From NCBI GenBank assembly GCA_963786955.1, contig CAWBAT010000006.1:448001-512000 (forward strand): 64,000 nucleotides of DNA. Reading direction: 5' to 3'. This stretch comes from an uncultured Acidimicrobiia bacterium (GTDB taxonomy: Bacteria > Acidobacteriota > Terriglobia > Versatilivoradales > Versatilivoraceae). Under the pieces are notes generated by a model, which did no database searches, had not been told where the DNA came from, and saw only the letters and a program-made list of their open reading frames with translations. Each line of letters begins with the position of its first letter. Position 1 is the first letter of the stretch. Of the stretch, positions 4,323 to 20,272 are shown one piece after another. Both the position numbers and the translations under genes were made by a program.

Positions 4323-4481
4323 CTTCTGGCTGAAAAGGATTGCAGAGGGCCTTTCGAGAGGACACTGTTGAAATTGAAGCTAGTGCTAAGTTGCATAAAT
4401 TCACGGTAATTGCTGTAGCAGGGGTCGTTGACCCATGAGCGCTAACTTTATAAGGCTTTCCTCGCCTGCCGCCGGTAGAAT

Positions 4482-4505
4482 GAAACGCCAAGAGCGCCAA
4501 GAAAA
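4482..4505. repeat. Left 9-mer repeat arm (cgccaagaN) flanking the GxxExxY gene
   Basis: gaaacgccaagagcgccaagaaaa; the first 12 nt are the exact reverse complement of 4966-4977. Confidence 0.7.
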
Positions 4506-4534
4506 GAGGATCCACTTCGGTCAGCCGCCTGATC

Positions 4535-4935
4535 TTATCCTACCCGCAGTTCTTCAGGATGGTTTCTGGCTACCCGCTGGATGCCGTCGCGTAACAAAAT
4601 CACGTTCCAATTGATGATCAACCCCGAAGACAAGCCGCTCAATTTCAAGTAAGTCAGCAACTCGGCGAGGTGGATGGGAAGAACTTTTTCGACCGTCTTG
4701 TTTTCCACCAGCACCAACTGGTCGATTCGCATGTCGATGCGGTAACCGACCTCAATAAGCACTCCTTCAAACTCTAGCGGAACAGCGACTTCGCATTCAA
4801 CCCTGTGGCGACGTCTTTGGGGCTCGTGTGCCAGACAAGCCTGATAGGCCGATTTTCCAGCAGCCCGGGCCCCAAGGCGCGATGTAGCTTGAGTGCAGCG
4901 TCAACAATATCCTTAGCTACTTCGTCGGCGGTCAT
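4535..4935 (-). CDS. GxxExxY protein (PD-(D/E)XK-like), frameshifted
   Basis: Reconstructed MTADEVAKDIVDAALKLHRALGPGLLE-SAYQACL...GYRIDMRIDQLVLVENK...HLAELLTYLKLSG; Shine-Dalgarno taggag before the ATG. Confidence 0.88.
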
Positions 4936-4948
4936 GAAGGCTCCTACT

Positions 4949-4977
4949 CTTGGCGAACCTTGCGTTCTTGGCGTTTC
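4949..4977. repeat. Right 9-mer repeat arm (inverted) flanking the GxxExxY gene
   Basis: cttggcgaa ccttgcgtt cttggcgtt tc. Confidence 0.7.
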
Positions 4978-5113
4978 CCAATTCTGGGCGTTATCTGCTC
5001 ACCGAGGATCCCGGAATGAACCGATCATCCAAGCTCAGGTTAGCGCTTATGGGACGTTGACCCCGGCCAACCCCAGCGGGGCCAGCTACAACATAGACTT
5101 CCGCAACTTAGCG

Positions 5114-6142
5114 CTACACGGACAAAGGATATTTGCCGTATTTCTTAACTGCCTCGGACATGGCCAAAACGTTTTCGGGAAGGAGGTAGCCCGCCAGACT
5201 GTTACCACTGGACACCATATAACCGCCACCAGGTCCGACATCACGCACCAGTTGACGCACTTCGTCATCCACTTCACTGGGAGTTCCCATGCCTAAAATA
5301 TTCAGATCAACGTTTCCCACCAAACAGATTCTCTTGCCGTAGCGCTCTTTCATCATCCGTATATCCAAAGCACCTTTTTCGTTCGGGTGGATAGCCGAAA
5401 TACCGACGCTCAACAAATCATCTACAAAAGGAAGGAGGTTCCCGTCGCTGTGGATGATCCACGGAAGCGTAATCTTCTGCCGGATTCTCTGGTAACGGGG
5501 AAGAACCAGATCGCGAAATACTTTTGGCGAGAAAAAGGGAGCGGTCTTAAATGCCATGTCATCCGTAGAAACAAACACATCAAAACCCATCTCGCAAACC
5601 CGCTCGGCCACTATAACCGCCCAGTCAACATAGCGATCCAGTACTGTTTCTACAAAGGTTCGATTCTCAAAAAGCGCGACCGAAAAATTCTCCAATCCCA
5701 TGCTCAGCCAGGTCGGGAAAATCCCAATTCGAGTAACGAAGCAGGCGGCGTAATCCCCCTTCTGCCTTACAAACTCCCTGGCTCCGTCATATAATGAGTC
5801 ATTGGTAGGATCCGGAAACTTCATGATAGAGAGGTCGGCTTCCGTTTTGATCATCCCATCCCCATAAAAGAGACGACCATCCTGACCGGGGATCCTTTCC
5901 GCCCACACGGGTGCGCGCAAGACATAGTAAATGTTGTCCATTTTCAGATGGCTCGCAATCGACTTTATTTCCTCCACCGTATAAGGATTTGTTTCCAAAC
6001 TGGCAGCCTGACTTATGGGTTCCCCCCAGGACATGAGCGTTTGAGCCAGTGCGCGATCCACACCGATCTCGACATAAGGGATACGGTCAGGTTGTTCACC
6101 ACGAAGTGCCGCAAGGACACGTTCTCGTGAAGTCATCACCAT
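5114..6142 (-). CDS. Uroporphyrinogen decarboxylase (URO-D/MtaA-like) family protein
   Basis: MTSRERVLAALRGEQPDRIP start, HSDGN, GNVD and GGGYMVSSGNS motifs. Start placed at MVMTS, downstream of the ORF-track start. Confidence 0.85.
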   Translation of the reverse strand: MVMTSRERVLAALRGEQPDRIPYVEIGVDRALAQTLMSWGEPISQAASLETNPYTVEEIKSIASHLKMDNIYYVLRAPVWAERIPGQDGRLFYGDGMIKTEADLSIMKFPDPTNDSLYDGAREFVRQKGDYAACFVTRIGIFPTWLSMGLENFSVALFENRTFVETVLDRYVDWAVIVAERVCEMGFDVFVSTDDMAFKTAPFFSPKVFRDLVLPRYQRIRQKITLPWIIHSDGNLLPFVDDLLSVGISAIHPNEKGALDIRMMKERYGKRICLVGNVDLNILGMGTPSEVDDEVRQLVRDVGPGGGYMVSSGNSLAGYLLPENVLAMSEAVKKYGKYPLSV

Positions 6143-6637
6143 AGGACTCTCCTTGTGTAGGTTCCTAACAAAAGTTATTTTTGAATGCCGAGCGTTGCCG
6201 AACGCAAAATGTGAATCAGGAACTTCTGATACAAGAGTATACAAATAAATTTGCAATTTGGATGCCAGCATTTACCTAGGGCATAGGCAAAATAAATCGA
6301 GGAGAAACGTGAATGGTTTACTTCTTTTGATGAGCAGTGACCATTTTGTATCCCGAGCCGAATATACCTTTATGGGAGGGGGCTGTCCTCAATCCCAACA
6401 CTCAACAGTGAGCGCAAGTTTCTTTTTTGGGGGTTTTCTATGAAAGAATTTGTTTTCAGCGCCCACTTATTTGGGCCAGACACCCCATTTGATTTGAATT
6501 TTCCCCCGTTTTTGAACAGTAGCCACGCCAGCCCTTTTGTCTATTGGCACGACTGCCGACGGTCCTTAAGTGTGGGACTATATCCGAGAGCGGACATCTT
6601 CGTTGGGGCTGGGGGATTTTCTCCGGGAGGTAACCAA

Positions 6638-6910
6638 ATGAGTGACACCCCGCCAGAAGTTCAGCGGATATATCAGGCGATGGTCCTGGCTAAAAGCGGG
6701 TCGGAACGTCTGCGCATGGGTTGCGATCTTTTCTCCACTTCAAGGGAATTGGTGATTGCTGCTCTTGGAAATAAGAACCTTGGGGATATGAGGGAACATC
6801 TTTTCTTGCGCTTCTACGGCTCGGAGTTCACCCCTGCTGAACGAGCCTGCATTCTGTCCAGTATTCGAGCTTGCAAGTCATGGGCTCACTCCCCACAGAA
6901 AGCTGAATAA
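6638..6910 (+). CDS. Small hypothetical protein (MxDTxPE...ERLRMG type)
   Basis: SD ggagg upstream of ATG 6638; MSDTPPEVQRIYQAMVLAKSGSERLRMGCDLF...FLRFYG. Confidence 0.65.
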   Translation: MSDTPPEVQRIYQAMVLAKSGSERLRMGCDLFSTSRELVIAALGNKNLGDMREHLFLRFYGSEFTPAERACILSSIRACKSWAHSPQKAE

Positions 6911-7059
6911 CGACCCTTTTTCTCCTGTGCGATTTCCCGACCGTTCTGCCGCTTGTATCGGCTCAAGCGACCAGACACTATCCTCTTGGACTTCCCATCT
7001 TTCTCCGCGAAATACACAAAATATGGGCTGACCATTGAAACACCCCACAACATTTTGCG

Positions 7060-7088
7060 TTTACAGTGTTATGCCTTGGACCTATAAT
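7060..7088 (+). promoter_or_regulatory. Sigma70-type promoter of guaA
   Basis: TTTACA-17 nt-TATAAT ending 30 nt upstream of the guaA ATG. Confidence 0.65.
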
Positions 7089-7118
7089 GCGTTCTTCAAT
7101 AGGTTGAAGGAGACCTGA

Positions 7119-8660
7119 ATGTCTGTTAGCCACGAAACCATTTTGGTGCTGGATTTTGGAGCCCAATATACCCAGTTGATTGCGCGGAGAGTCCGTGAAG
7201 CCCATGTCTACTGTGAAATCCTGCCCTTTAATACGTCTCTGGACGAAATCCTGAAGCGAAAACCTAAGGGTGTGATTCTATCGGGAGGTCCCTCTTCTGT
7301 TTATGGAGAAGACGCGCCACATAGCGATGCGGGATTATGGTCCACCCCATTGCCTGTCTTGGGGATCTGTTATGGGTTCCAGCTCATGGCCTACCAGCTG
7401 GGGGGGAAAGTTGAAGGGGCTCAGAAACGTGAATATGGCCTCGCCACTCTGGATGTGCGGCAAGCCAGTCCCCTCTTCGCCGGCGTCCCTCCCTCCTCGA
7501 AGGTATGGATGAGTCATGGCGATCATATTGCCTCGCTCCCGGCGGGCTTTGGATTGATCGCAACTTCCGCCAATTCCTTGGCGGCCGCCGAAGACGGAGA
7601 ACGGCACTTGTATGGGCTTCAGTTTCATCCCGAAGTCATCCACACCGAATATGGAAAGAAGATTATCGAGAACTTTCTCTTTCAAGCCTGCCGGTGCCGT
7701 GGGGACTGGACTCCTGCTTCGTTCATTGAAGAGTCTGTTGCGCGAATCCGCCAGCAAACCGCCAGCGGTAAAGCAATTTGCGCCCTCAGTGGCGGTGTGG
7801 ACTCCACTGTTGCGGCGGTTCTGGTCGATCGTGCCATTGGGAAGAAGCTGACCTGTATCTTTGTGAATAACGGGGTTCTGCGCAAGAATGAGTTCTCGAA
7901 GGTTCTGGCAAGTCTGCGCGACCGGCTTAATTTGCAAGTTTTGGGTGTCGATGCGAGCGAGATCTTCTTGGGCAAGTTGTCTGGCGTTGCAGATCCTGAA
8001 AAAAAACGAAAAATCATCGGAAATACCTTCATCGAAATCTTCGATGAAGAAGCCGCCAAGTTAGGCGATGTCGACTTCCTCGTACAAGGGACGTTGTACC
8101 CTGATGTGATCGAATCGGTTTCTGTGAAAGGCCCGTCGGCTACGATTAAGTCCCATCACAATGTAGGCGGGCTTCCAGAACGCATGAAGCTCAAGCTCGT
8201 CGAACCGCTGCGCGAACTATTCAAGGATGAAGTGCGCGCCATTGGAAAGGAATTGGGCCTCAGCGATGAGATCATTCAACGCCAGCCCTTTCCAGGACCA
8301 GGCTTGGCAGTCAGGATCTTAGGCGAAATCACGCCGGAGCGAATTCACATCCTGCAGGAAGCCGACGAAATCGTGGTCGGTGAAATCAAACAAGCCGGAC
8401 TTTACCCCAAGATTTGGCAGTCGTTTGCGGTCCTTTTGCCCGTTAGAAGCGTGGGAGTGATGGGTGACGAACGGTCCTACGACTACACCGTCGCAATTCG
8501 TGCCGTTCATTCTCAGGATGGCATGACCGCCGATTGGGTCCGTCTTCCCTATGATGTCTTAGAACGGATGTCGACTAGAATTGTCAATGAAGTCAAAGGA
8601 GTCAACCGGGTGGTCTACGACATCAGTTCAAAGCCTCCGGCAACGATTGAGTGGGAATGA
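7119..8660 (+). CDS. guaA: GMP synthase (glutamine-hydrolysing)
   Basis: [31 protein letters not shown] and KPPATIEWE motifs. Confidence 0.99.
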
Positions 8661-8664
8661 AGAG

Positions 8665-8776
8665 GAGCAAGGTACAAGTGGAAAGGGTCAAGCTAGAAGG
8701 ATCGATAGGCAAGGGTTAAGGATTAAGCTCAATGGATCGAGGGGCAAGCGTTAAGGGTCAAGGGGAAAGCGAAAAC
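8665..8776 (+). repeat. Degenerate heptamer tandem array (NNNNAAG)n, upstream arm of four-helix-bundle cassette 1
   Basis: AAG in strict 7-nt phase at 8669, 8676, 8683, 8690, 8697, 8711, 8718, 8725, 8746, 8753, 8760 and 8767. Confidence 0.85.
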
Positions 8777-8813
8777 ACAGTAAGCAGAAAATACTGGTGC
8801 AAATGGGCTATCG

Positions 8814-9172
8814 ATGTCGCACGACGAATCGTTCGAGAATCTCGTAGTATGGAAAAAGGCCATGGACCTCGTCGTAAAGGTCTATCGACTTTGTCAACAA
8901 AGCCCACTTTCCAAAGACTGGGGCATGCGAGATCAGATGCAGAGAGCGGCTGTTTCAGTTCCGAAGGATATGAGCGGGGTGGCAGAAAAGAATATATCCG
9001 TTACTTAACAATCTCTAAAGGTTCATCTGGGGAGCTTCGCTGTTTATTGACCGTTGCTTGCCAATTAAAATATCTTTCAAAAGAAGTCGGCGTTGATGTT
9101 CTTAACGATGCGGTGGAAGTTTCAAAAATGCTGAAAGGGCTTATCAATTCTCTAAGCCCCGATCGTGATTGA
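8814..9172 (+). CDS. Four helix bundle protein (23S rRNA IVS protein / Avd-like family), frameshifted
   Basis: SFENLVVWKKAMDL...DWGMRDQMQRAAVSVP joined to EGYERGGRKEYIRYLTISKGSSGEL; the expected SNIA segment appears lost at the frameshift near 8960. Confidence 0.88.
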
Positions 9173-9179
9173 ATTTGCA

Positions 9180-9236
9180 CTTGCTCTTTTATTCTTTTCA
9201 ACTTGACGCTTGACGCTTAACCCTTAACCCTTTTTT
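9180..9236 (+). repeat. Heptamer array (CTTNNNN)n, downstream inverted arm of cassette 1
   Basis: cttgacg cttgacg cttaacc cttaacc ctt at 9202-9232; inverse of the upstream units (e.g. ggttaag). Confidence 0.8.
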
Positions 9237-9269
9237 ATTTTACTCTGCGTTCATTCGCGGCCATACCAC

Positions 9270-12200
9270 ATGTCTAATACCAAATTCGTCCATCTCCATC
9301 TCCACACCGATTTCAGCTTGCTCGATGGAGCTTGCGAAATCGAGACGGTGATGAACCGGATGTCCGATCTTAAGATGCCGGCTGCCGCGATTACGGACCA
9401 CGGCAACCTCTTTGGTGCTGTTAGCTTTTATGAGGCGGCCCGAAACCGAGGCATCAAACCCATCATCGGCTGCGAAGTCTATGTCGCTAGGAAAAGCCAT
9501 ACCGACCGAACAGCCTCTGACGGAGAAAAGACCAATCACCACCTCGTTTTGCTTTGCGAGAATAATCAAGGTTACAAGAACCTCGTCAAGCTTGTTTCCC
9601 ATGGTTTCTTGCAAGGCTTCTACTATAAGCCGCGCATCGATAAAGAACTTCTGGCCAAACACAGTGAGGGACTCATTTGTTTATCCGCTTGCTTGAGCGG
9701 TGAAGTGTCTTCCAATCTGGTCCACGGGCAATATGAAGCGGCCAAAAAATCCGCCGGTGAGTACATCGACATATTCGGACGCAATCACTTCTATCTTGAA
9801 ATACAGGACCAAGGGTTAGAAGCCGAGCACCGGATCAATCCCGAGCTGGTCAGACTTTCACGGGAACTCGAGGTCCCCCTGGTTGCCACCAACGATTGTC
9901 ACTATGTCACTAAAGAGGATTCCCGAGCGCATGAAGTGCTGCTTTGTATTCAAACCGGCAAGACCATGAGTGACAACAACCGGATGCGCTTCTCTACGGA
10001 CCAGTTCTATGTAAAATCTCAAGACGAAATGATTGCGCTCTTTGGGGAGATTCCTGACGTTTTGACTCGAACCCTTGAAATTGCGGAGCGCTGCGATTTT
10101 AGCTTGGAGAAGGCCGCTCAACCTTTCCCTCATTTCGACGTGCCACCCGACCGAACCCTCGACGAATTTTTTGAAGAGATTGTCTGGAAAGGATATGAAG
10201 AGCGCCTACCCCACCTCGTGCAAGCACAGCAGAAGGGGCAATTGCGTCATCCTCTGACCGTTTATCAAGAGCGCCTCACCCAGGAAATCCAGATCATCAA
10301 GCAAATGCGGTTCCCCGGTTATTTTCTAATCGTCTGGGATTTCATCCGTTTTGCCAGGCAAAACAAGATACCGGTGGGGCCCGGAAGAGGCTCTGCTGCC
10401 GGAAGTCTGGCTTCCTATTGCCTTCGGATCACGGATATTGATCCTATTCAATACGGGCTCCTCTTTGAACGATTCCTGAATCCGGAACGCATCTCCATGC
10501 CCGACATCGATATCGATTTTTGTACGAATCGCCGGGGTGAAGTCATTAATTACGTCACGCACAAGTACGGGCGCGAAAATGTCTCTCAGATCATCACGTT
10601 TGGGACGATGGCGGCCAAGGCAGCCATCAAAGATGCGGGACGAGCACTAGACATGCCCTATGCCGAGGTTGACAAGATTGCCAAGCTGGTGCCCGCCGAA
10701 CTGAACATTACCTTGGCTAAGGCGCTCGCTCAGTCTGAAGGGTTGAGAGAACTCTCGGCCAAGGACGAACGGGTCAAGGATCTGCTCGACATCGCCAAGC
10801 GTCTCGAAGGCATGGCACGCCATGCCTCTACTCATGCGGCAGGTGTAGTCATTTCTCCGGTGCCATTGACCGACATTGTGCCACTGCACAAGACGAACAA
10901 AGATGAAATTACGACCCAGTATTCGATGAATGATCTGGAAAAGATTGGCCTGCTGAAAATGGATTTTTTGGCTCTCACCACCTTGACCGTTTTAGATGAG
11001 GCCATCAAATTAATTGCGGAAACAACTGGTACAACCGTCGAACTGGACCAGATTCCCATGGACGATGCAAAGACCTACGAGATCTTTTCCAAGGGCCTCG
11101 CAAACGGCATTTTCCAGTTTGAAAGCAGTGGAATGAAAGATATCCTGCGCCGCTTCAAACCGGAAAAACTGGAAGACCTCACTGCCTTAAATGCCTTGTA
11201 CCGGCCCGGTCCGATTGGCGGAGGAATGATTGACGATTTCATCAAGCGGAAGCACGGTGAAAGGCGAGTTTCCTATCATTTGCCGGAATTGAAAGAGATT
11301 TTGGAAGAGACTCTCGGAGTCATTGTCTACCAGGAGCAGGTCCAGCAGATTGCGAACAAATTGGCCGGGTACTCGCTAGGGGAAGGAGATATCCTGCGCC
11401 GTGCCATGGGGAAGAAGAAACCGGAAGAGATGGCAGCCCAACGTGAGAAATTTGTGGCTGGGGCGAGAGCTCGCGGCCTTGACCAAAAAAAGGTCACCAA
11501 GATCTTTGATCTCATGGAACAATTCGCAGGCTATGGGTTCAACAAATCCCATTCGGCCGCTTATGCACTCCTGGCCTATCAGACCGCCTTCCTCAAAGCC
11601 CACTACCCGGTTTGCTTCATGTCCGCTCTGCTGACCAGTGAAATTAGCAATACCGATAAGATCGTCAAATACATCAATGAATGTCGCGACCTGAGCATTA
11701 AGATTTTGCCTCCTGACATTAACATCAGCCACCTCCACTTCACTCCAGCAGAGCATGAAATCCGCTTTGGACTTGCCGCAATCAAAAATGTCGGGGCAAA
11801 TGCCATTAATTCCATCATCGAGGCCCGAGGAAGGAATGGACGATTCACTTCGCTTTTCGACTTCTGTGAGCATGTTGACTTGCGCGTGGTCAACAAGCGT
11901 GTCATTGAAAGCCTGATCAAGGCAGGAGCTCTTGACTCAACCGGTCAGAAGAGATCCCAGTTGTTTGCGGTAGTGGATAGAGCCATTGAGACAGCCCAAA
12001 AAGTCCAGCGGGATCGTGAGTCGGGTCAGAAAGGATTGTTTGGCCTCGGAGTCAGTGTGGCTCAGGATTCCCATCCTCAGCATTCAGCTTCTTCCCTGCC
12101 AAACTTGCCGGAATGGGAGGAGTCCCTGCTTCTTTCCTATGAGAAGGAAACTCTTGGGTTCTATATTACCAGCCATCCTCTTTCCAAATATGTCAGTCAA

Positions 12201-12753
12201 CTGAAGGAGTTTGCTGCTGCAACGACTGAAACCTTGAGTGAATTGGAGGCCGGAAAAGAAGTATTCATTGGTGGAATCTTAACGAGTCTGAGACTTCTCA
12301 AGACCAAGAAAGGCGATCGCATGGCCGTTTTCCATATTGAGGATCTGACCGGATCCGTTGAAGCCGTTCTTATTCCCGGAGCCTTTCCAGCGCTTTGAAA
12401 AGTGGCTCAAGATCGACGCTCCCTTGCTGATTAAAGGAATTCTGGACGTGGAAGACTCCGGCGCGCGAAAACTCAAGACTATTGAGGTTCAGCCCCTGGA
12501 AGGCTTCCGCGAACGCGCCGCGACTTCGGTGACCATCCGAGTCAACCTAGCCGGGATGGGTCAAAGTGGAGCGGCAAAGATCCAATCGATACTTAGTGGT
12601 TACCCCGGTGAAACGCGGGTCATCTTTGAACTTGAACACCCAAAGGCCTATCTGATAACCTTACGCCCGAATCAGTTTGTGAGGGTGAAGCTGGATCCAC
12701 AATTTGTACAAGCAGTCGAAAACATTTGCGGGGCAGGCGCCGTGAGATTCTAA
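9270..12753 (+). CDS. dnaE: DNA polymerase III alpha subunit (indel near 12375)
   Basis: FVHLHLHTDFSLLDG PHP domain, GRGSAAGS, PDIDIDF and YGFNKSH; the OB-fold/C-terminus continues in ORF 12358..12753. Confidence 0.98.
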
Positions 12754-13739
12754 TGGCTGATGAAACCATTCCCGAACGAGAAGAAGTCGATCAGCTCGAG
12801 AAGCAAATTGAAGAATTGTCTAAGCTGATTCTGGACGACAGTACCGCGCGCGAACTGGAACGGCTCAAGAGACGGCTCGAGAAGCTCGGAAAAGAGATCT
12901 TTGCCAAACTGACGCCCTGGCAAAAAGTCAAACTTGCCAAGCATCCTCAACGCCCTTATGTCCTCGATTATGTCGAACTGATCTTTGAAGACTTCATGGA
13001 GTTGCATGGTGACCGGCGCTTTGAGGATGATCCGGCCATGATTGGAGGAATGGCCTCATTTCACGGTGAGCCATGTATGGTCATCGGGACACAGAAAGGA
13101 CGAGATACCAAACAAAAACTGTTTCGTAATTTCGGCATGCCCAAGCCTGAAGGGTATCGCAAAGCCATGCGCCTAATGAAGTTAGCAGAGAAATTTTCCA
13201 GGCCTGTTTTTACTTTCATCGACGTGGTCGGCGCTTTCCCGGGAATTGAGGCTGAAGAACGGGGACAAGCCGAAGCGATCGCTTATAATCTGAGGGAAAT
13301 GGCTCGACTGGAAGTTCCTGTGATCGTGACCATCACGGGGGAAGGCGGCAGTGGAGGGGCCTTGGGAATTGGCGTGGGGGATCGGGTTCTGATGCAGGAA
13401 TTTGCCTATTATTCCGTGATTTCTCCGGAGGGGTGTGCAGCGATTCTCTGGAAAGACCAGGATAAAGTGGAAGAAGCAGCAAACGCCCTCAGAATTACGT
13501 CAGCCGATCTGAAGTCGATGGGGATTATCGATGAGATCATCACTGAACCAGACGGCGGAGCCCACAACGATTTTCCCCTTGCAGCCTCCTATCTCGATGA
13601 GAAGTTAAAGCTAACCCTTGCAGAGCTTAAGTCCATCCCTCTTCCCAGGTTGCTTGAACAACGCTATCAGCGATTCCGAGCCCTCGGATCGTTCCTGGAA
13701 ACAGGGAAAGGGACCGGAACCGGAACAGCCTCGAGTTAG
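12753..13739 (+). CDS. accA: Acetyl-CoA carboxylase carboxyltransferase alpha subunit
   Basis: LHGDRR, NFGMPKPEGYRKA, GEGGSGGALGI and YSVISPEGCAAILWK; ATG overlaps the dnaE stop. Confidence 0.97.
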   Translation: MADETIPEREEVDQLEKQIEELSKLILDDSTARELERLKRRLEKLGKEIFAKLTPWQKVKLAKHPQRPYVLDYVELIFEDFMELHGDRRFEDDPAMIGGMASFHGEPCMVIGTQKGRDTKQKLFRNFGMPKPEGYRKAMRLMKLAEKFSRPVFTFIDVVGAFPGIEAEERGQAEAIAYNLREMARLEVPVIVTITGEGGSGGALGIGVGDRVLMQEFAYYSVISPEGCAAILWKDQDKVEEAANALRITSADLKSMGIIDEIITEPDGGAHNDFPLAASYLDEKLKLTLAELKSIPLPRLLEQRYQRFRALGSFLETGKGTGTGTASS

Positions 13740-13838
13740 GGCTCAGCAATAGCGAAAAATTAGACCGAAAATTTTCGATAAACCCGTTTTTGCTGACTAT
13801 TTGAACGACCAGAGCAAAAGTTCTCTTCCATTACTAAT

Positions 13839-14072
13839 ATGAAACCTGCCGTCAAGAAACTTAAGACTTGTCAATTTTCCAAGCCGATCGTCGCCGATTT
13901 CTTCGGCAAAGAGAACGCACATACACACCGATTAACCTGCGATCATCCTGAAAAGAAAATCGATTGGGAACTCGATGTGTGCAATTCCTGCGACGTATAC
14001 GTCAACCGGAACAAACCTTCAGAACCAGAATCTCCCAAAAAGAAAACTCGCGCCCGAAAACCAGCAAAGTAG
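13839..14072 (+). CDS. Small Cys-containing hypothetical protein with a basic tail
   Basis: 77-aa ORF with four Cys (CQF, TCDH, CNSC) and a Lys-rich C-terminus. Confidence 0.55.
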   Translation: MKPAVKKLKTCQFSKPIVADFFGKENAHTHRLTCDHPEKKIDWELDVCNSCDVYVNRNKPSEPESPKKKTRARKPAK

Positions 14073-14247
14073 CAACAGGCATCCTTGCCTGTTGTCCTCC
14101 CAATAAAAAAGCCGACAACCAGGATGGCTGTCCTACTCCCGGAAAGCTGGTAGCCACAAGCATCCACCCCTGTCGTAGTCGAGTGTGAGGCTTTGTTGTA
14201 GCCGGGGCCGCTGGCCCCGGACAACAGGCCCGGAGGCCGTTGCTACC
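14068..14247. repeat. Cluster of REP-like palindromes
   Basis: gtagcaacaggcatccttgcctgttg, accaggatggctgtcctac and tgtagccggggccgctggccccgg (related inverted copy at 51720-51742). Confidence 0.55.
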
Positions 14248-14270
14248 AGGAACCAGCCATTCCGAATCCA

Positions 14271-14975
14271 TCAAAAGCTCATGAATTCTTTGCTGATGGA
14301 AAACTTTTTGGAAATATCCGAGGGGCAGTGGAGCACATGCTCCAAGAAATCGCGCGGTTTCAGTAGCCCCCCGGTCTCAGGTTTAACAGAAACCGTAAAA
14401 ACAAATTTCGGCCGCTCATCGTTTTCAACACAGAGATTAATAATTTGTTCATGATCTTTAGAGCTGCACCAGAAGTCGTTCCCTTTGCTGTGGTCGCTCA
14501 GATGGTTTATCAGATCGTTTAGACGGCTCAGCAAAAGTGACAACGCAGGGCCATCCCCATTCAAGGGACCGGCTGGGTAAATCGCCCGATAGGTTACTTG
14601 TAAAGGCTGGGTAATCGCTCCCCTTCCTTTCTCCACGAGCTCAATACTCTGTACGCACAATCCGTCGATTAAACATTCGTTGATACCCTTGACGGCGCAT
14701 TCAGGCAACTCACCAAAGTGTTCAAACTGCACATACTCCGACCGGCTGCTCATGCCTAGAGGGATGGCTGGGGAGGTTTGAAATTTCGGACGTGGAGTAA
14801 ATCCCTCGGTAAACCGGAGCTTAAACCCGGATCGCAGCATGGCCTTCTCGATCAAGCACATAACATTCAAGTGCGAGAGGAACCGCGCGGGCCCTTCTTT
14901 CCAATAGTGGAGAATGTAAACTTTGGCCGGCAACGCACTCCCCATTTTTCGTTCTGTAGAATCCTCAATACTCAC
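14271..14975 (-). CDS. Radical SAM-associated protein (DUF2344/TIGR03936-like)
   Basis: KEGPARFLSHL, FTEGFTPRPK and AIPLGMSSRSEY motifs; coupled to the upstream radical SAM gene. Confidence 0.85.
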   Translation of the reverse strand: MSIEDSTERKMGSALPAKVYILHYWKEGPARFLSHLNVMCLIEKAMLRSGFKLRFTEGFTPRPKFQTSPAIPLGMSSRSEYVQFEHFGELPECAVKGINECLIDGLCVQSIELVEKGRGAITQPLQVTYRAIYPAGPLNGDGPALSLLLSRLNDLINHLSDHSKGNDFWCSSKDHEQIINLCVENDERPKFVFTVSVKPETGGLLKPRDFLEHVLHCPSDISKKFSISKEFMSF

Positions 14976-17012
14976 TACGGCGGATTGTCAACCCGCAATT
15001 CCACTTCCCCCACTTTGTCCTCGCTAATCGAAAGTGATTCGCCGGGCTCCGGAAAGGATTCCTGCCTATTCTGCGCTGTCGTGGGACTTATGACAGGCAG
15101 TCCAATATGAACTAAGTTCTCTTCCACAATCTGATTCGGGATTTCTGCCAGTTTGATATCTGCATAGTTGCCAGGAATGCCACAACCGCGACAATCGCCC
15201 CACTTACAGTCGCAGGTTTGAACCTCGTTATAAGAGCGTTCGCGTTCTTTCAGTAGAAATTTTTTCGAAACTCCAATATCAACGAAATCCCAAGGGAGTA
15301 CTTCATCAAGACCAATGTCCCGATTGTAGTAATAAGGATCCACACCGGATTCTTCGAAAGCCTTCATCCAAAGATCAAACCGGAACATCTCATTCCAGCC
15401 GTCAAAACGGCATCCCAGTTCGTAAGCCTTGAGGATGGCGCGCCCCACCTGACGGTCTCCGCGGGACAGCACTCCTTCTACAAAGCCTTCCTTGGGCTCA
15501 TGCCATTTAAGCCGGGCAAAAGGGAATCGAACGGCCGATTTCAAGATAATTCAATCGATCCGTCGTCACCTTGAGATCTTCAAAGCGATCCCACTGAAAT
15601 GGGGTAAATGACTTGGGGACAAAGGTCCCGATGCTGGCATTGACGTTTTTCTGTCCCTTGAATCGATACCCGATCTTGCCAACCTCACGAATCAAATCCA
15701 CTAATTCACGGATGTCGGCATCGGTTTCTGTTGGCAACCCGATCATGAAATAAAGTTTGATGAGATTCCATCCTTGACGATAAGCGGTTTCAACAGCCTG
15801 GAAAAGTTCTTCATTGCTGATATTTTTATTGATGAATTTCCGCATGCGGACGCTGCCTGCCTCCGGAGCAAAAGTAAAGCCATTCTTCTTCACTTCGCCA
15901 ACATTTTCCGCTAATGAAACCGAAAACATATCGGCCCGCAAGCGATGGCAGTGAGATGGAGACTTTATCTTTGGAGAACTTCCTTGCCATCTCCTTCGTG
16001 AGACACCCAATCTGGCTGTAATCGGACGTGGAGAGGGAAAGCAAGCCAATCTCGCGATTTCCCGTATTTTTCAGGGTCTCCGAGGTCAGATCGCACCACG
16101 TCGTCCACATTCAGTTCTCTGGTTGGGCGATACCAATACCCTGCCTGACAAAACCGGCAGCCCTGCGTGCAACCACGCATGACTTCGACACTGACGCGAT
16201 CTTGAATGATGTCAATGACCGGTACTACGGGCTTGGTCGGATAAAATTCCGGAGAGAGTGCCTCAACCCAACGCCGTTTGACAAGAGTCGACGGCTTGCC
16301 AGATCGGGTTCCGCCGTACCACGGACCAGGGGGGTGATGAATCTGGGGGACATAGATGCCAGGAATCTCGATAACGCCTTTAGGATCTGCCACCGTCTTC
16401 GCCCGTTCTCTTTGGCGTCTCGAAAACAATCGATAATCTCGCAACGATTTCTTCACCATCTCCGATCACAAAAAAGTCGATAAAATCAGCCAGCGGCTCC
16501 GGATTTGCGGTGCACGGACCTCCGGCGCACACCAGTGGCTGGGCCTCACCTCGTTGTTCCGCCAACAGAGGAATTCCGGCCAGATCTAGCATATAGGGAA
16601 CATTGATATACGTCTGCTCGGCTTGAAGGGAAAATCCGACAATATCAAATTCCCGAATAGGGGTTTTGGTTTCAAGACTGAGAAGGGGAATTCCTGCGAA
16701 CTGGAATTGCTCCGCCATGTCCACCCATGGGGCAAACACGCGTTCGGCATAGACATCTTCGATCTTGTTCAGGATGTGGTAGAGCATCCGGATCCCATTG
16801 TGCGACATCCCGATCTCATACACTTCTGGGAAGGCCAGCGCGAAGCGAACGTTTACTTGCCCCAAGTCTTTCAGGATCATATTCGGCTCGCCGCCAATAT
16901 AGCGCCCTGGTTTTGCTCCTTGTTCCAGCAATGAAAAATATTGATCTTTGAACTCTGCCAGTTGTGTTCGCAAGTGAGAGTCCTCCCCGACAGATAAGCT
17001 TCTATCCGGCAA
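14975..17012 (-). CDS. TIGR03960-like B12-binding radical SAM protein, split by several indels
   Basis: KPGRYIGGEPN, AFPEVYEIGMS, EVMRGCTQGCRFCQAG, FTFAPEAG, KLYFMIGLPTE and FDGW motifs across four overlapping ORFs. Confidence 0.9.
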
Positions 17013-17049
17013 TTATACCAAGTCGCATTCAAACGGTGACTGTCTGAAT

Positions 17050-17180
17050 TCCCCTCCTCCGGAAGGGGTGTAGGGGTGGGTTCGTCAGTGACGAAAAGCG
17101 GGCACCCTGTCTGCGTTCCCAGTGGTAATCATACCCACCCCTGGCGCCTAAGGTCGCCTTCCCCTCCCATAGAGGAGACT
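17050..17180. repeat. Inverted-repeat intergenic element (cccctcc..ggggtggg / cccacccc..cccctccc)
   Basis: Preceded by gtgactgtctgaattcccctcc, which recurs at about 22304-22325. Confidence 0.5.
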
Positions 17181-17385
17181 TGTTTCGATTCACCCCCGCT
17201 GGAGAGGCTAGCTCGTTTCTATGTATCCATTTGTTTGCAACTTGGCATTATAGAGTAGTCGCCTGTGAATTCAAATCTGTTCGGGAATTACCGATGGGAG
17301 TGAACGCCTGCACAATTGCCCAAACTCTCCACATCAGGCGAGGACGCCTGTCGCTACCGAATTTGCGAGGGGTAGAAAGTCCTCC

Positions 17386-17880
17386 TTATCCACCGCAGCG
17401 CAATGTGTTTCCTGAAATGACTTCCAAGGCATGCCCCAAGATTGCAGCAATGGCACCCAGGGACTCTCGAACACCCTTGACGCTTCCGGGCAAGTTGATA
17501 ATGAGAGTTTTATTGCGGATGCCCACTAAACCGCGGGAGAGGGAAGCCCGAGGATTTGCTTTCATCCCTTCGAACCGCATCAGTTCGGCCATTCCCGGGA
17601 CAGGCTTTTCAATTACCGCAGCTGTGGCTTCAGGGGTTACATCTCGCGGCGCTAAACCGGTACCACCCGTTGTGACAATGAGATCGATGTCCGAAGAGTT
17701 GATACTTTCAAGTAGCCGCGATTGAATCGCATCAATTTCGTCCGCGACGATCAAGACAGCAAGGACTTCACAACCGATTATTTCCAGCCCTTCCTTCGCT
17801 GCCGGGCCCGATAAATCCTGGCGCTCGCCGCGAGAAGCGGAGTCACTGATGGTAATCACTATAGCGTGAGGTTTTCGCAA
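17386..17880 (-). CDS. mog: Molybdopterin adenylyltransferase, MogA/MoaB family
   Basis: TISDS, DLSGP, TTGGTGLAPRDVTPEAT, SRG and NLPGS motifs. Confidence 0.9.
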   Translation of the reverse strand: MRKPHAIVITISDSASRGERQDLSGPAAKEGLEIIGCEVLAVLIVADEIDAIQSRLLESINSSDIDLIVTTGGTGLAPRDVTPEATAAVIEKPVPGMAELMRFEGMKANPRASLSRGLVGIRNKTLIINLPGSVKGVRESLGAIAAILGHALEVISGNTLRCGG

Positions 17881-17893
17881 GTTACTTAAGGGT

Positions 17894-17945
17894 TTCAGAG
17901 TTCAGAGTTCTAAGTTCAGAGTTTAGAATCGAGAGCTTCAAGTTC
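17894..17945 (-). repeat. Heptamer array (ttcagag)n, downstream arm of four-helix-bundle cassette 2
   Basis: ttcagag ttcagag ttctaag ttcagag tttagaa tcgagag cttcaag. Confidence 0.85.
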
Positions 17946-18325
17946 TATTGCAGCGGAAGTTCCTTTTTGTTTAAGTAAGCCATTAGCCGGGTGGTCATCG
18001 AAATCACTTCCTCCGCCTTGTGGTACAACATATCAAATTGACTTCGATCCATTCCCGTGGTGTCGAGGGCAACATACAGCAGAGATTGAACCTCGACTGC
18101 CGATGCCCTGGCGAAGCTGAGGAAATGAGAGAAATCCTTGCGACTTTTTCTGGCAAATCCTTCAGCAATATTACTCATAGCCGAGACGGCTGTCCTCTGG
18201 ATCTGGTCTCTCAGTCCGTAATCTTTCCCAATCCTCCCAACTGAGCTTGTTTTGTAGATTTCTTGAACAAGTTCTCTTGCCTTCTGCCATGCCTGAATAT
18301 CTTCGAAACGCCTAATCGTCGCCAT
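17945..18325 (-). CDS. Four helix bundle protein (23S rRNA IVS protein / Avd-like family)
   Basis: IRRFEDIQAWQKAREL...DYGLRDQIQRTAVSAMSNIAEGF...FLSFARASAVEVQSLLYVALD. Confidence 0.93.
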   Translation of the reverse strand: MATIRRFEDIQAWQKARELVQEIYKTSSVGRIGKDYGLRDQIQRTAVSAMSNIAEGFARKSRKDFSHFLSFARASAVEVQSLLYVALDTTGMDRSQFDMLYHKAEEVISMTTRLMAYLNKKELPLQ

Positions 18326-18436
18326 TTTACAAATGTAATCCTGAAAATCTGATAACCACAGGTCACCCTGCCTTATGGCAAATAACTAATAGTTTAGATT
18401 ACGAACTCCCTATTTTAACTTTGACTCCAAAAGCTG

Positions 18437-18520
18437 CTAGCTCAATACTTCGAACTCTTCACTCCGAACTCTGAACTCAGGACTCGAGACTCCGGACTTC
18501 GGACTCCCGACTCTAGAACT
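18437..18520 (-). repeat. Heptamer array (NNNactc)n, upstream arm of cassette 2, inverted relative to 17894-17945
   Basis: ctagctc aatactt cgaactc ttcactc cgaactc tgaactc aggactc gagactc cggactt cggactc ccgactc. Confidence 0.88.
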
Positions 18521-19019: not shown

Positions 19020-20272
19020 TTAGTGTATGAACGCTCTCGGATCCGTAATAAAACCGGTGAGCGCTGAGGCTGCCGCGGTAGCGGGGCTGGCTAGATAAAT
19101 CTTGGCCTTCGGGCTTCCCATCCGCCCTTCGAAGTTGCGATTGCTGGTGGACACGCACACCTCATGATCGTAGAGCACCCCCCCTGCCCTACCGAGGCAA
19201 GGTCCGCAACCAGGGCTGGAGACAATAGCCCCCATTTTCATAAACTCTTCGATGTATCCCTTCTTCAAGGCCTGCAAGTAAACCTTTCGTGAAGCTGGAG
19301 TCACGATCGTTCGCAATCCTTCTTTTAGCTTCTTTCCCTTCCACACGCCATAGACGACATCCAGATCTTCAATCCGGCAATTGGTACAGGATCCGATGAA
19401 GACCTGGTCTACCCGAATCCGCTCAGCTTGCACTTGTTCCACTGGCACATCATTGTCAATGTCCGGAGGGCAGGCAATCATGGGCTTCAATCTGAAATGT
19501 CAAAATGAAGGACTTTCTCAAATCGGGCGCCGTCGTCACTGCGAATCTCCTCAAAGTTGTAGTCGCGTTCATTTTCCACAAGATATTCTCGCGTTTTCTG
19601 ATCAGGAGGAACAATGGCCGCTTTGGCTCCCATTTCAGCGCTCATATTCGTCAGGGTGAGTCGAGCGGGGACATTGAAGTTTTCAACGGTGTCTCCCCAA
19701 TATTCAATAACCCTATAATTCGCTCCGTCTGCCCCTAATTCTTTCGCAACCCTGAGTATGACATCCTTGGAAAAACACCCATGAGGAAGCTTCCCGGTGA
19801 TATTGATTCGAATGGTCTCGGGAACACGGAACCACGCTTTGCCAGTTGCCATGGCAATGGCAGCGTCAGTAGAACCCACACCAATCGTTAAGGCACCCAC
19901 CCCTCCTCCGGTCGGGCTGTGCGAATCCGCCCCCAGGATAAGGTTGCCGGGGTTGATCAGACGCTCAGACATCACTTGGTGACAAACTCCCTCGAAGCTG
20001 ATCGGGATCCCTTGCTCTTCAGCGAATTTCCGGATTTCAGCCTGTAGCTTGGACATCGCCACACTGGGACTGGGAAACGCATGGTCGAAAGGAATAAATA
20101 TCTTCTTAGGATCAAAGACTTTGGTCGCGATCTGGTAGAACGGCTCAAGGGCCCAAGCACAGGTCGTGTCGTGTGCCATGATGAGATCCAATTCAGCTAA
20201 AACAAAATCACCCGCATGAACTTTTTTTCCACAATGACTTGAAAATATCTTCTCTGCGATAGTTTGTCCCAT
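19020..20272 (-). CDS. leuC: 3-isopropylmalate dehydratase/homoaconitase large subunit (indel near 19490)
   Basis: [33 protein letters not shown] and NRNFEGRMG motifs. Confidence 0.87.

Follow-up and report, generated by a model that had tools for sequence, protein, structure and literature searches.

A 64,000-nt stretch of the genome of an uncultured bacterium (contig CAWBAT010000006.1, positions 448,001 to 512,000; referred to here as the window, with its first letter as position 1) contained three small genes, each enclosed between a tandem array of short words on its upstream side and the reverse complement of that array on its downstream side. This gene-plus-arms design (referred to as the cassette) is real and widespread. 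The following were seen directly: the architecture, its specificity for protein families, filled, empty and remnant alleles, one swap between alleles, sporadic insertion in conserved genes, a linkage between repeat word and protein, and hitchhiking in an IS186-type insertion sequence (IS). As an explanation we favor, with a probability only slightly above one half (roughly 0.55), small selfish cassettes whose protein would bind its own word and whose arms would act as exchange ends at the DNA level; binding, the DNA substrate, selfishness and the insertion chemistry are the parts that we infer.

Architecture and recurrence of the cassettes

Profile matches confirmed the three genes, their families and their neighbors (URO-D-like/MFS, guaA/dnaE and leuD/mog), as given in a preliminary description of the same DNA, and the arrays 5' and (in reverse complement) 3' of each gene stood up as well, with multi-register arm scores of 11 for the GxxExxY cassette and 16 for both four-helix-bundle cassettes. 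The GxxExxY gene (TIGR04256/PF13366; 4535-4935, minus strand; 77 bits against a cut-off of 35) had an upstream arm of three CRC-cored units at 9-nt spacing (4948-4977, minus strand) and a downstream arm, also of 9-nt units (4482-4504, minus strand), corresponding to 2.5-3 copies. The four-helix-bundle gene at the guaA-dnaE site (TIGR02436/PF05635; 8814-9172, plus strand) was frameshifted and lay between 7-nt arms of AAGGGTY-like units on the plus strand: an upstream arm beginning at the guaA stop (8661-8769), whose outer two to three units were common to the different allele of the sister genome (G002) and whose inner units were of the AAGGGTY type, and a downstream arm (9174-9232), clearest at 9202-9232. 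An isolated half-arm (9240-9261, plus strand) of the GxxExxY type with 10-nt units, read from the sequence directly before dnaE, is a probable remnant of another element. At the leuD-mog site, the gene (TIGR02436/PF05635; 17945-18325, minus strand) was intact, encoding 126 amino acids (TIGR02436: 101 bits), and its 7-nt arms of GAGTTCR-like units, also on the minus strand, consisted of an upstream arm with an RGTY core, beginning at the leuD stop (18447-18516), and a downstream arm ending 14 nt ahead of the mog start (17894-17943). The arm pairs of all three cassettes can pair in several registers. One idea, dropped because it suited leuD by eye but not guaA, was that arm words are copies of the upstream gene's end.

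Two of the three genes were interrupted: a 2-nt insertion near 4853, not found in other copies, shifted the frame of the GxxExxY gene, and that of the guaA-dnaE gene was shifted by a deletion of 13 nt near 8965, as compared with the G008 allele. Since dnaE, a radical-SAM-like gene and leuC were also split across frames (12358-12398, 14975-17012 and 19487-19490), the assembly of the source genome (G000; 93% complete, 9 contigs) looks indel-prone, and these two frameshifts may be assembly errors.

Arms were scored as 6-mers shared in secondary registers (period of 7-10) within 260-nt flanks. Among 4,881 other genes of the source genome, taken from a rough open reading frame (ORF) caller, scores of at least 4 were obtained for 54, and a score of at least 11 for only one, which adjoined a four-helix-bundle cassette. 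By comparison, scores of at least 4 were found at all 8 four-helix-bundle (PF05635) loci and at 10 of the 14 GxxExxY (PF13366) loci scored, short fragments among the 20 PF13366 matches having been excluded. A cruder first score, by which the guaA value was reached by 3 of 200 shuffles and 8 of 22 targets were non-significant, was judged too noisy and was superseded.

TIGR02436 was present in 87, and TIGR04256 (E≤1e-30) in 49, of 151 sampled genomes of the phylum (the unpublished genome G069 was counted only in these tallies), with up to 22 matches per genome. The preliminary description had proposed a comparison of arrays around these families with those around other genes; they proved to be enriched, family-specific and recurrent across phyla, in loci that were best matches rather than a random sample and whose kin are non-independent: scores of at least 5 were found at 27/30 four-helix-bundle loci of the phylum (2/55 displaced controls), and at 61/75 scorable loci of relatives of the leuD-site gene from many phyla in GTDB (2/141 controls; of 80 loci, 5 had flanks too short to score). 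The arm periods of the 61 loci were 7 nt (44), 8 nt (10), 9 nt (4) and 10 nt (3). For GxxExxY loci, 19/29 scored at least 4, as against 2/56 controls. Gene-less hairpin-like spacers with a score of at least 5 numbered 46 among 3,410 (none after shuffling), and some of these were other palindromic repeats. Some contigs held three four-helix-bundle genes 3-4 kb apart (G140:C223 and G176:C7), and whole cassettes were duplicated in tandem, with the junction within the arms, in L307 (G020:C1:733000-736500; 491-bp period) and L092.

The co-orientation with both neighbors noted in the preliminary description held for the three cassettes of the window, but not genome-wide, where the bias concerned the upstream gene only: 26/27 cassettes were co-oriented with it (background, 71%), and 17/27 with the downstream gene (rough gene calls, including at least one downstream miscall). 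In the GTDB set, the upstream gene was co-oriented at 58/72 loci. This bias fits promoterless units that need read-through.

Filled, empty and exchanged sites

Empty alleles, a search for which in relatives had been proposed at the outset, were found at all three sites. The guaA-dnaE cassette was present in 4 of 20 syntenic loci; in the other 16, a spacer of 54-227 bp took its place, and, by eye, hairpins built from other words and without a gene were present in five of these spacers, and arm remnants in two. At leuD-mog, 4 of 25 loci were filled, with a decayed cassette in G004 and only 13-78 bp in 8 loci. The URO-D/MFS junction was about 90 bp in G001, and G002 had neither the MFS gene nor the cassette. 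At L201 and L209, two genomes carried GxxExxY alleles of differing arm words at one site.

At guaA-dnaE, the cassette gene of the source genome was 64.9% identical to that of G002, its sister genome, while the flanks were 91.8 and 94.2% identical. In trees of this gene, G000 grouped with G008 (96/81 for protein and 89/94 for DNA), while the host tree joined G000 and G002 (100/100), and a constraint to the latter grouping was rejected in the approximately unbiased (AU) test (p-AU=1.2e-6; the G000+G008 group was named after the identities had been seen). The coding DNA was similar to that of G002 up to the guaA stop and again from the dnaE start, and the similarity of the left arm stopped after two to three heptamers; both ends of the exchanged segment were within 60 nt of the flanking genes. 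On this sequence evidence, the guaA-dnaE cassette of the source genome is a swapped allele. Over the gene, both four-helix-bundle cassettes of the window matched only themselves in the source genome, that is, no near-identical dispersed copies were found there.

Five of 120 loci (L181, L192, L313, L315 and L316) were nested in other genes, all in the sense orientation: two N6_N4 methyltransferases, a D12-like methyltransferase, a Toprim protein and an Ig-domain protein. The host gene reads through the cassette in the -1 frame, which was open in only 5/115 other loci (this comparison is biased, two of the nested cases having been noticed via the open frame). At the methyltransferase site, the insert was missing in all 22 readable homologues (of 23), which had 16-31 residues in place of 162. 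The insertion site corresponded to a hairpin turn of conserved genes, and the arms formed the ends. As judged from these homologues, the nested cases show an insertion delimited by the arms, and they suggest read-through rather than removal of the insert.

Repeat words, proteins and competing explanations

Among 56 relatives of the leuD-site protein with a clear word (median pairwise protein identity, 56%), 50 had RGT in the upstream arm as read on the sense strand, in comparison with 3/56 for the reverse complement, a mean of 22.7 and a maximum of 36 in 1,000 letter shuffles, and 8/22 in other subfamilies; positions outside this core varied. GxxExxY arms consisted of three CRC-N-RR units spaced by 8-10 nt, on both sides in 28/40 loci and in 0/39 controls (the pattern was chosen after the arms had been seen), with the usual polarity in 24 of the 28 and the reverse in 4. 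A previous pattern with fixed spacing had missed mixed 8/9 spacing (16/40) and was replaced. Such constancy of the core across phyla, with variation around it, is what one would expect of recognition by a cognate protein, and binding or recombination arrays, one of the options in the preliminary description, would fit both these protein-linked cores and the swap with its left breakpoint inside an arm.

The leuD-site protein matched the pentameric Xcc0516 (2GSC; E=3.7e-17), a relative in PF05635 reported as a pentamer (PMC4990558). A model of the GxxExxY protein, made from an intact copy with 93-94% identity, had a PD-(D/E)XK fold (predicted local distance difference test score, pLDDT, 93.5). 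Its best structural matches, with Z scores of 8.1 (root mean square deviation of 3.3; 100 aligned), 7.8 and 7.4, were PD-(D/E)XK chains including Cas4 SSO0001, with no single close one among them; Foldseek gave no match at E≤0.001, and no solved structure was found among the sequence relatives. Residues of catalytic type were retained in 37 GxxExxY proteins: E30, D70, K82 and Y98 were invariant, and E80 and Q94 were conserved in at least 90%, giving the motifs E, D, ExK and QxxxY, the last of which we take to be RecB/Cas4-like. The protein is, therefore, predicted from the model and these residues to be a minimal PD-(D/E)XK nuclease. The single mention of GxxExxY in the accessible part of one preprint is a cas4-like annotation (10.1101/2021.01.26.428298).

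In the proposed mechanism, a cassette would comprise one promoterless gene of about 120 amino acids, for a four-helix-bundle protein or a minimal PD-(D/E)XK nuclease, flanked on either side by repeats of a short word in opposite orientations. Its protein would recognize, most likely on DNA, the constant core of that word (RGT in the leuD subfamily and CRC in GxxExxY), and the arms would serve both for binding and as exchange ends. Cassettes would arrive 3' of, or within, transcribed genes in the sense orientation, persist for long, and undergo exchange where a site is already occupied; their decay would leave hairpins with no gene, and solo arms. Carriage by ordinary transposons, as seen here for the GxxExxY copy, would be a further route. 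Since we know of no activity for the four-helix-bundle fold, the catalytic partner of these cassettes would come from elsewhere. A stronger claim, to which we give somewhat less than even odds, is that they represent a new class of transposase-free mobile elements, in which a ring-forming or nuclease protein reads the core of a periodic word and drives insertion into transcribed DNA as well as exchange. If so, ORF-bearing rRNA intervening sequences (IVSs), the methyltransferase inserts tolerated in frame, and much of the bacterial excess of 7-nt repeats would be members and debris of this class. TIGR02436 and TIGR04256 are widespread families with no known function, and the cognate word of each subfamily offers a direct binding assay; the cassettes also make the origin of ORF-bearing rRNA IVSs and the abundance of 7-nt repeats in bacteria (PMC4692102) testable.

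Several points weigh against the selfish cassette. Binding, cutting and insertion were none of them observed. The leuD-mog allele was vertical between G000 and G002 (93.0% identity, with flanks at 86-89%). Because alleles at guaA-dnaE and leuD-mog each formed site-specific clades, and arm remnants were present in distant family members, the cassettes at these two sites look, from their sequences, like old residents with losses rather than fresh insertions. No target duplication or fixed end was found for four-helix-bundle cassettes in comparisons with empty relatives, which were 70-80% identical and too diverged for the junction to be read. Arms were not detectable at 3/30 (phylum) and 14/75 (GTDB) four-helix-bundle loci. 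Obligate pairing of the two families was unsupported, with 52 of the 87 TIGR02436 genomes having no strong TIGR04256 match (a hand count at different thresholds). The linkage between word and protein could be partly shared descent among non-independent loci. Lastly, an IS186-type element flanked by a target duplication carries the GxxExxY copy, and thus the spread and copy-number growth of this unit here are, on the evidence of the element's ends, ordinary transposition.

An explanation without self-mobility, in which domesticated small proteins with autoregulatory arrays would have hitchhiking in known elements and ordinary gene transfer as their only means of spread, and deletion as their means of loss, draws on this IS186-type carriage, on the position of gene-less hairpin families inside other repeats, and on the long residence suggested by clades and remnants; 18 PF05635 genes in cas loci (PMC3936711) also hint at a host function. 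We consider it unlikely: the GxxExxY subfamily also occurs with no transposon ends, the swap ends close to both flanking genes, cassettes are sporadically inserted into the hairpin turn of conserved genes with their arms as ends, and their ORFs are often decayed.

Slightly less probable is an mRNA intervening sequence, whose arms would pair in the transcript, so that RNase III could cut the stem and free the ORF-containing RNA in the manner of 23S rRNA IVSs. The link to these IVSs drawn in the preliminary description is real. In the Coxiella IVS, the S23p ORF is preceded by tandem heptamers, the first of which is the site of an RNase III cut (PMC4990558). Further likenesses to the IVSs of Coxiella and Leptospira are the S23p/PF05635 family (shared by just the two four-helix-bundle cassettes), a stem closed by complementary ends, the sense orientation, and a sporadic distribution with horizontal transfer (PMC4990558). 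They differ from the cassettes in that those of the window lie between protein genes and others inside them, none being inside an rRNA gene in the window, that excision is not indicated here, and that an unrelated second family (GxxExxY) shares the design; heptamers are noted for one IVS element only in the accessible text of that report (PMC4990558). By this analogy, the Coxiella IVS reads best as a member of the cassette class that landed in rRNA.

The looping-out of the ORF from mRNA, also suggested in the preliminary description, gained no positive evidence, even though the arms close a stem in predicted folds and the sense bias towards the upstream gene would be in keeping with it. RNA helices under selection usually favor G-U pairs. 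No G-U excess was found in the best arm alignments, where G-U and A-C mismatches numbered 74 and 77 (32 of 36 four-helix-bundle loci), 59 and 54 (33 of 38 GxxExxY loci) and 95 and 113 (GTDB relatives of the leuD gene), or 228 and 244 in total; register slippage may blur this test. Whole-cassette folds gave z values of -3.1, -1.15 and -0.75 against shuffles, only that of the leuD copy being strong. Cutting with no re-ligation would break the host genes of nested cassettes, and yet these genes retain an open frame across the insert. Among the 15 joints listed from 4 public RNA runs (56 more being unlisted), none was RNA-only and spanned a cassette, a weak result obtained on contigs of related strains; in 20 RNA runs, at most 44% of sampled words were matched, all as contigs. 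A skip of 4507-4950 occurred in DNA runs and probably comes from gene-less relatives. Rfam gave no match in positions 1-25000 of the window. RNase III cleavage of the arms may occur as a side effect.

The least probable explanation is retro-mobility, in which an Avd-like ring would bind the word in its own transcript and recruit a host reverse transcriptase, making the cassette a non-autonomous retroelement: the resemblance of PF05635 to Avd of diversity-generating retroelements (DGRs; PMC10053308), the fixed polarity of the core on the sense strand, the sense orientation of 5/5 nested and 26/27 genomic cassettes, and the lack of a visible target duplication agree with it, but the sense bias is equally explained by read-through expression and holds for 9/9 transposon-borne copies, and GxxExxY nuclease cassettes of the same design are left unaccounted for.

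With regard to other known systems, Avd shares fold homology with PF05635/Xcc0516 and a pentameric ring (PMC10053308), whereas no reverse transcriptase gene adjoins the cassettes of the window (the four-helix-bundle ones have guaA/dnaE and leuD/mog as neighbors), and no template or variable repeat was seen, though no search was aimed at one. In REPIN-RAYT systems (repetitive extragenic palindromic, REP, sequences with their associated tyrosine transposase), a small gene lies between inverted copies of its cognate repeat, with many gene-less hairpin derivatives, and the cassettes are alike in this; their arms differ in being periodic word arrays instead of single palindromes, and their proteins are TIGR02436/TIGR04256 instead of HUH/Y1 transposases. 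Unexplained heptamers have been reported from Xanthomonas (GGGAATC) and Nostoc (PMC4692102) and from Beggiatoaceae (TAACTGA; PMC4679880): these are 7-nt intergenic tandem arrays, often in inverted pairs (70-75 in xanthomonads) and often ending right before start codons, which in the accessible text of the two papers (PMC4692102, PMC4679880) are tied to no gene family or mobile element. The inner design of the cassettes is outside rRNA IVS, REPIN and DGR membership and resembles the first two; the shell around the GxxExxY cassette (4434-5051) is a conventional derivative of the IS4 family. No description of the design as a class was found in a literature search, with most subscription papers and supplements being beyond its reach.

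The IS186-type shell and other repeats

The preliminary description had called the cassettes transposase-less, which failed for the GxxExxY copy. This cassette is a passenger of a 618-bp non-autonomous IS4-family (IS186/IS421-type) element (4434-5051, minus strand) with terminal inverted repeats at 4434-4446 and 5039-5051. The element was flanked by an 11-bp target-site duplication (4423-4433 and 5052-5062; 10/11 identical) and interrupted a palindromic, CTAG-ended host repeat of about 110 bp, resembling REP or miniature inverted-repeat transposable elements, whose halves were at 4380-4433 and 5052-5117, each including its target copy; 26 uninterrupted copies of this repeat were found in the source genome. 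The same genome had 9 left ends of such elements (a tenth match was unconfirmed), of which 7 belonged to two-ended copies of 321-625 bp, and many copies were internally deleted. Target duplications matched at 7-10 of 11 positions in the 7 two-ended copies and at 11/11 in 6 of 14 elements of relatives, matches that are inflated by the palindromic target.

In G011 (L128), we detected an autonomous element of 1,346 bp that shares the ends of the 618-bp element, encodes an IS4 transposase (NF033592; 159.7 bits, cut-off 115) and is flanked by a perfect 11-bp duplication. IS421 of E. coli had the same ends, a 10-bp duplication and an enzyme with 34% identity. No cognate transposase was found in the 93%-complete source genome by tblastn with the L128 enzyme; IS4 matches were present in five relatives and were not matched to the ends of the 618-bp element. 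Published IS186 targets are GGGG-N6/7-CCCC (PMC6925257) and agree with the target seen here (PMC12102499), and IS186/IS421 are described as CAT-ended members of the IS4 family with 10-12 bp duplications (PMC2266710). Similar to these and to IS231-type mobile insertion cassettes, the outer unit had the same terminal repeats, a passenger gene, an autonomous partner in a relative, and an 11-bp duplication forming a GG-N7-CC palindrome. The likeness applies only to this outer shell; the inner arms and both four-helix-bundle cassettes had no such ends. Since members of the GxxExxY subfamily also had arms with no transposon ends (L092, L094 and L105), the inner design is separate from the IS shell. 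The shell is a warning that seeming mobility of these genes can be ordinary hitchhiking.

Other repeats were noted in the source genome. About a dozen near-identical gene-less 7-nt hairpins with one common loop lay beside or inside other GC-rich palindromic repeats (for example C5:609214, C6:98167, C6:912028, C8:79894, C8:116509, C8:133595 and C9:215700), suggesting from their similarity amplification as a unit. Outside the window, in a polysaccharide-synthesis-like region (G000:C5:200954-265935), many spacers were strings of single arms of several word families (7, 9 and 10 nt), with one polarity per spacer, which flipped across a block at 220-243 kb; a composite of about 204 bp was itself tandemly repeated near 254900-255500. 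A gene at G000:C6:573725-574201, presumably a REP-associated tyrosine transposase, had on its flanks the REP core of the repeat that hosts the GxxExxY element, and further cores of this family were at 14080-14250 and 51721 of the window. A cluster of GC-rich palindromes at 17050-17220, covered by many metagenome contigs, is probably another repeat family. Between the URO-D-like gene and guaA, an ORF (6440-6910, plus strand) had no Pfam or NCBIfam match and lay in a stretch not alignable to G002.

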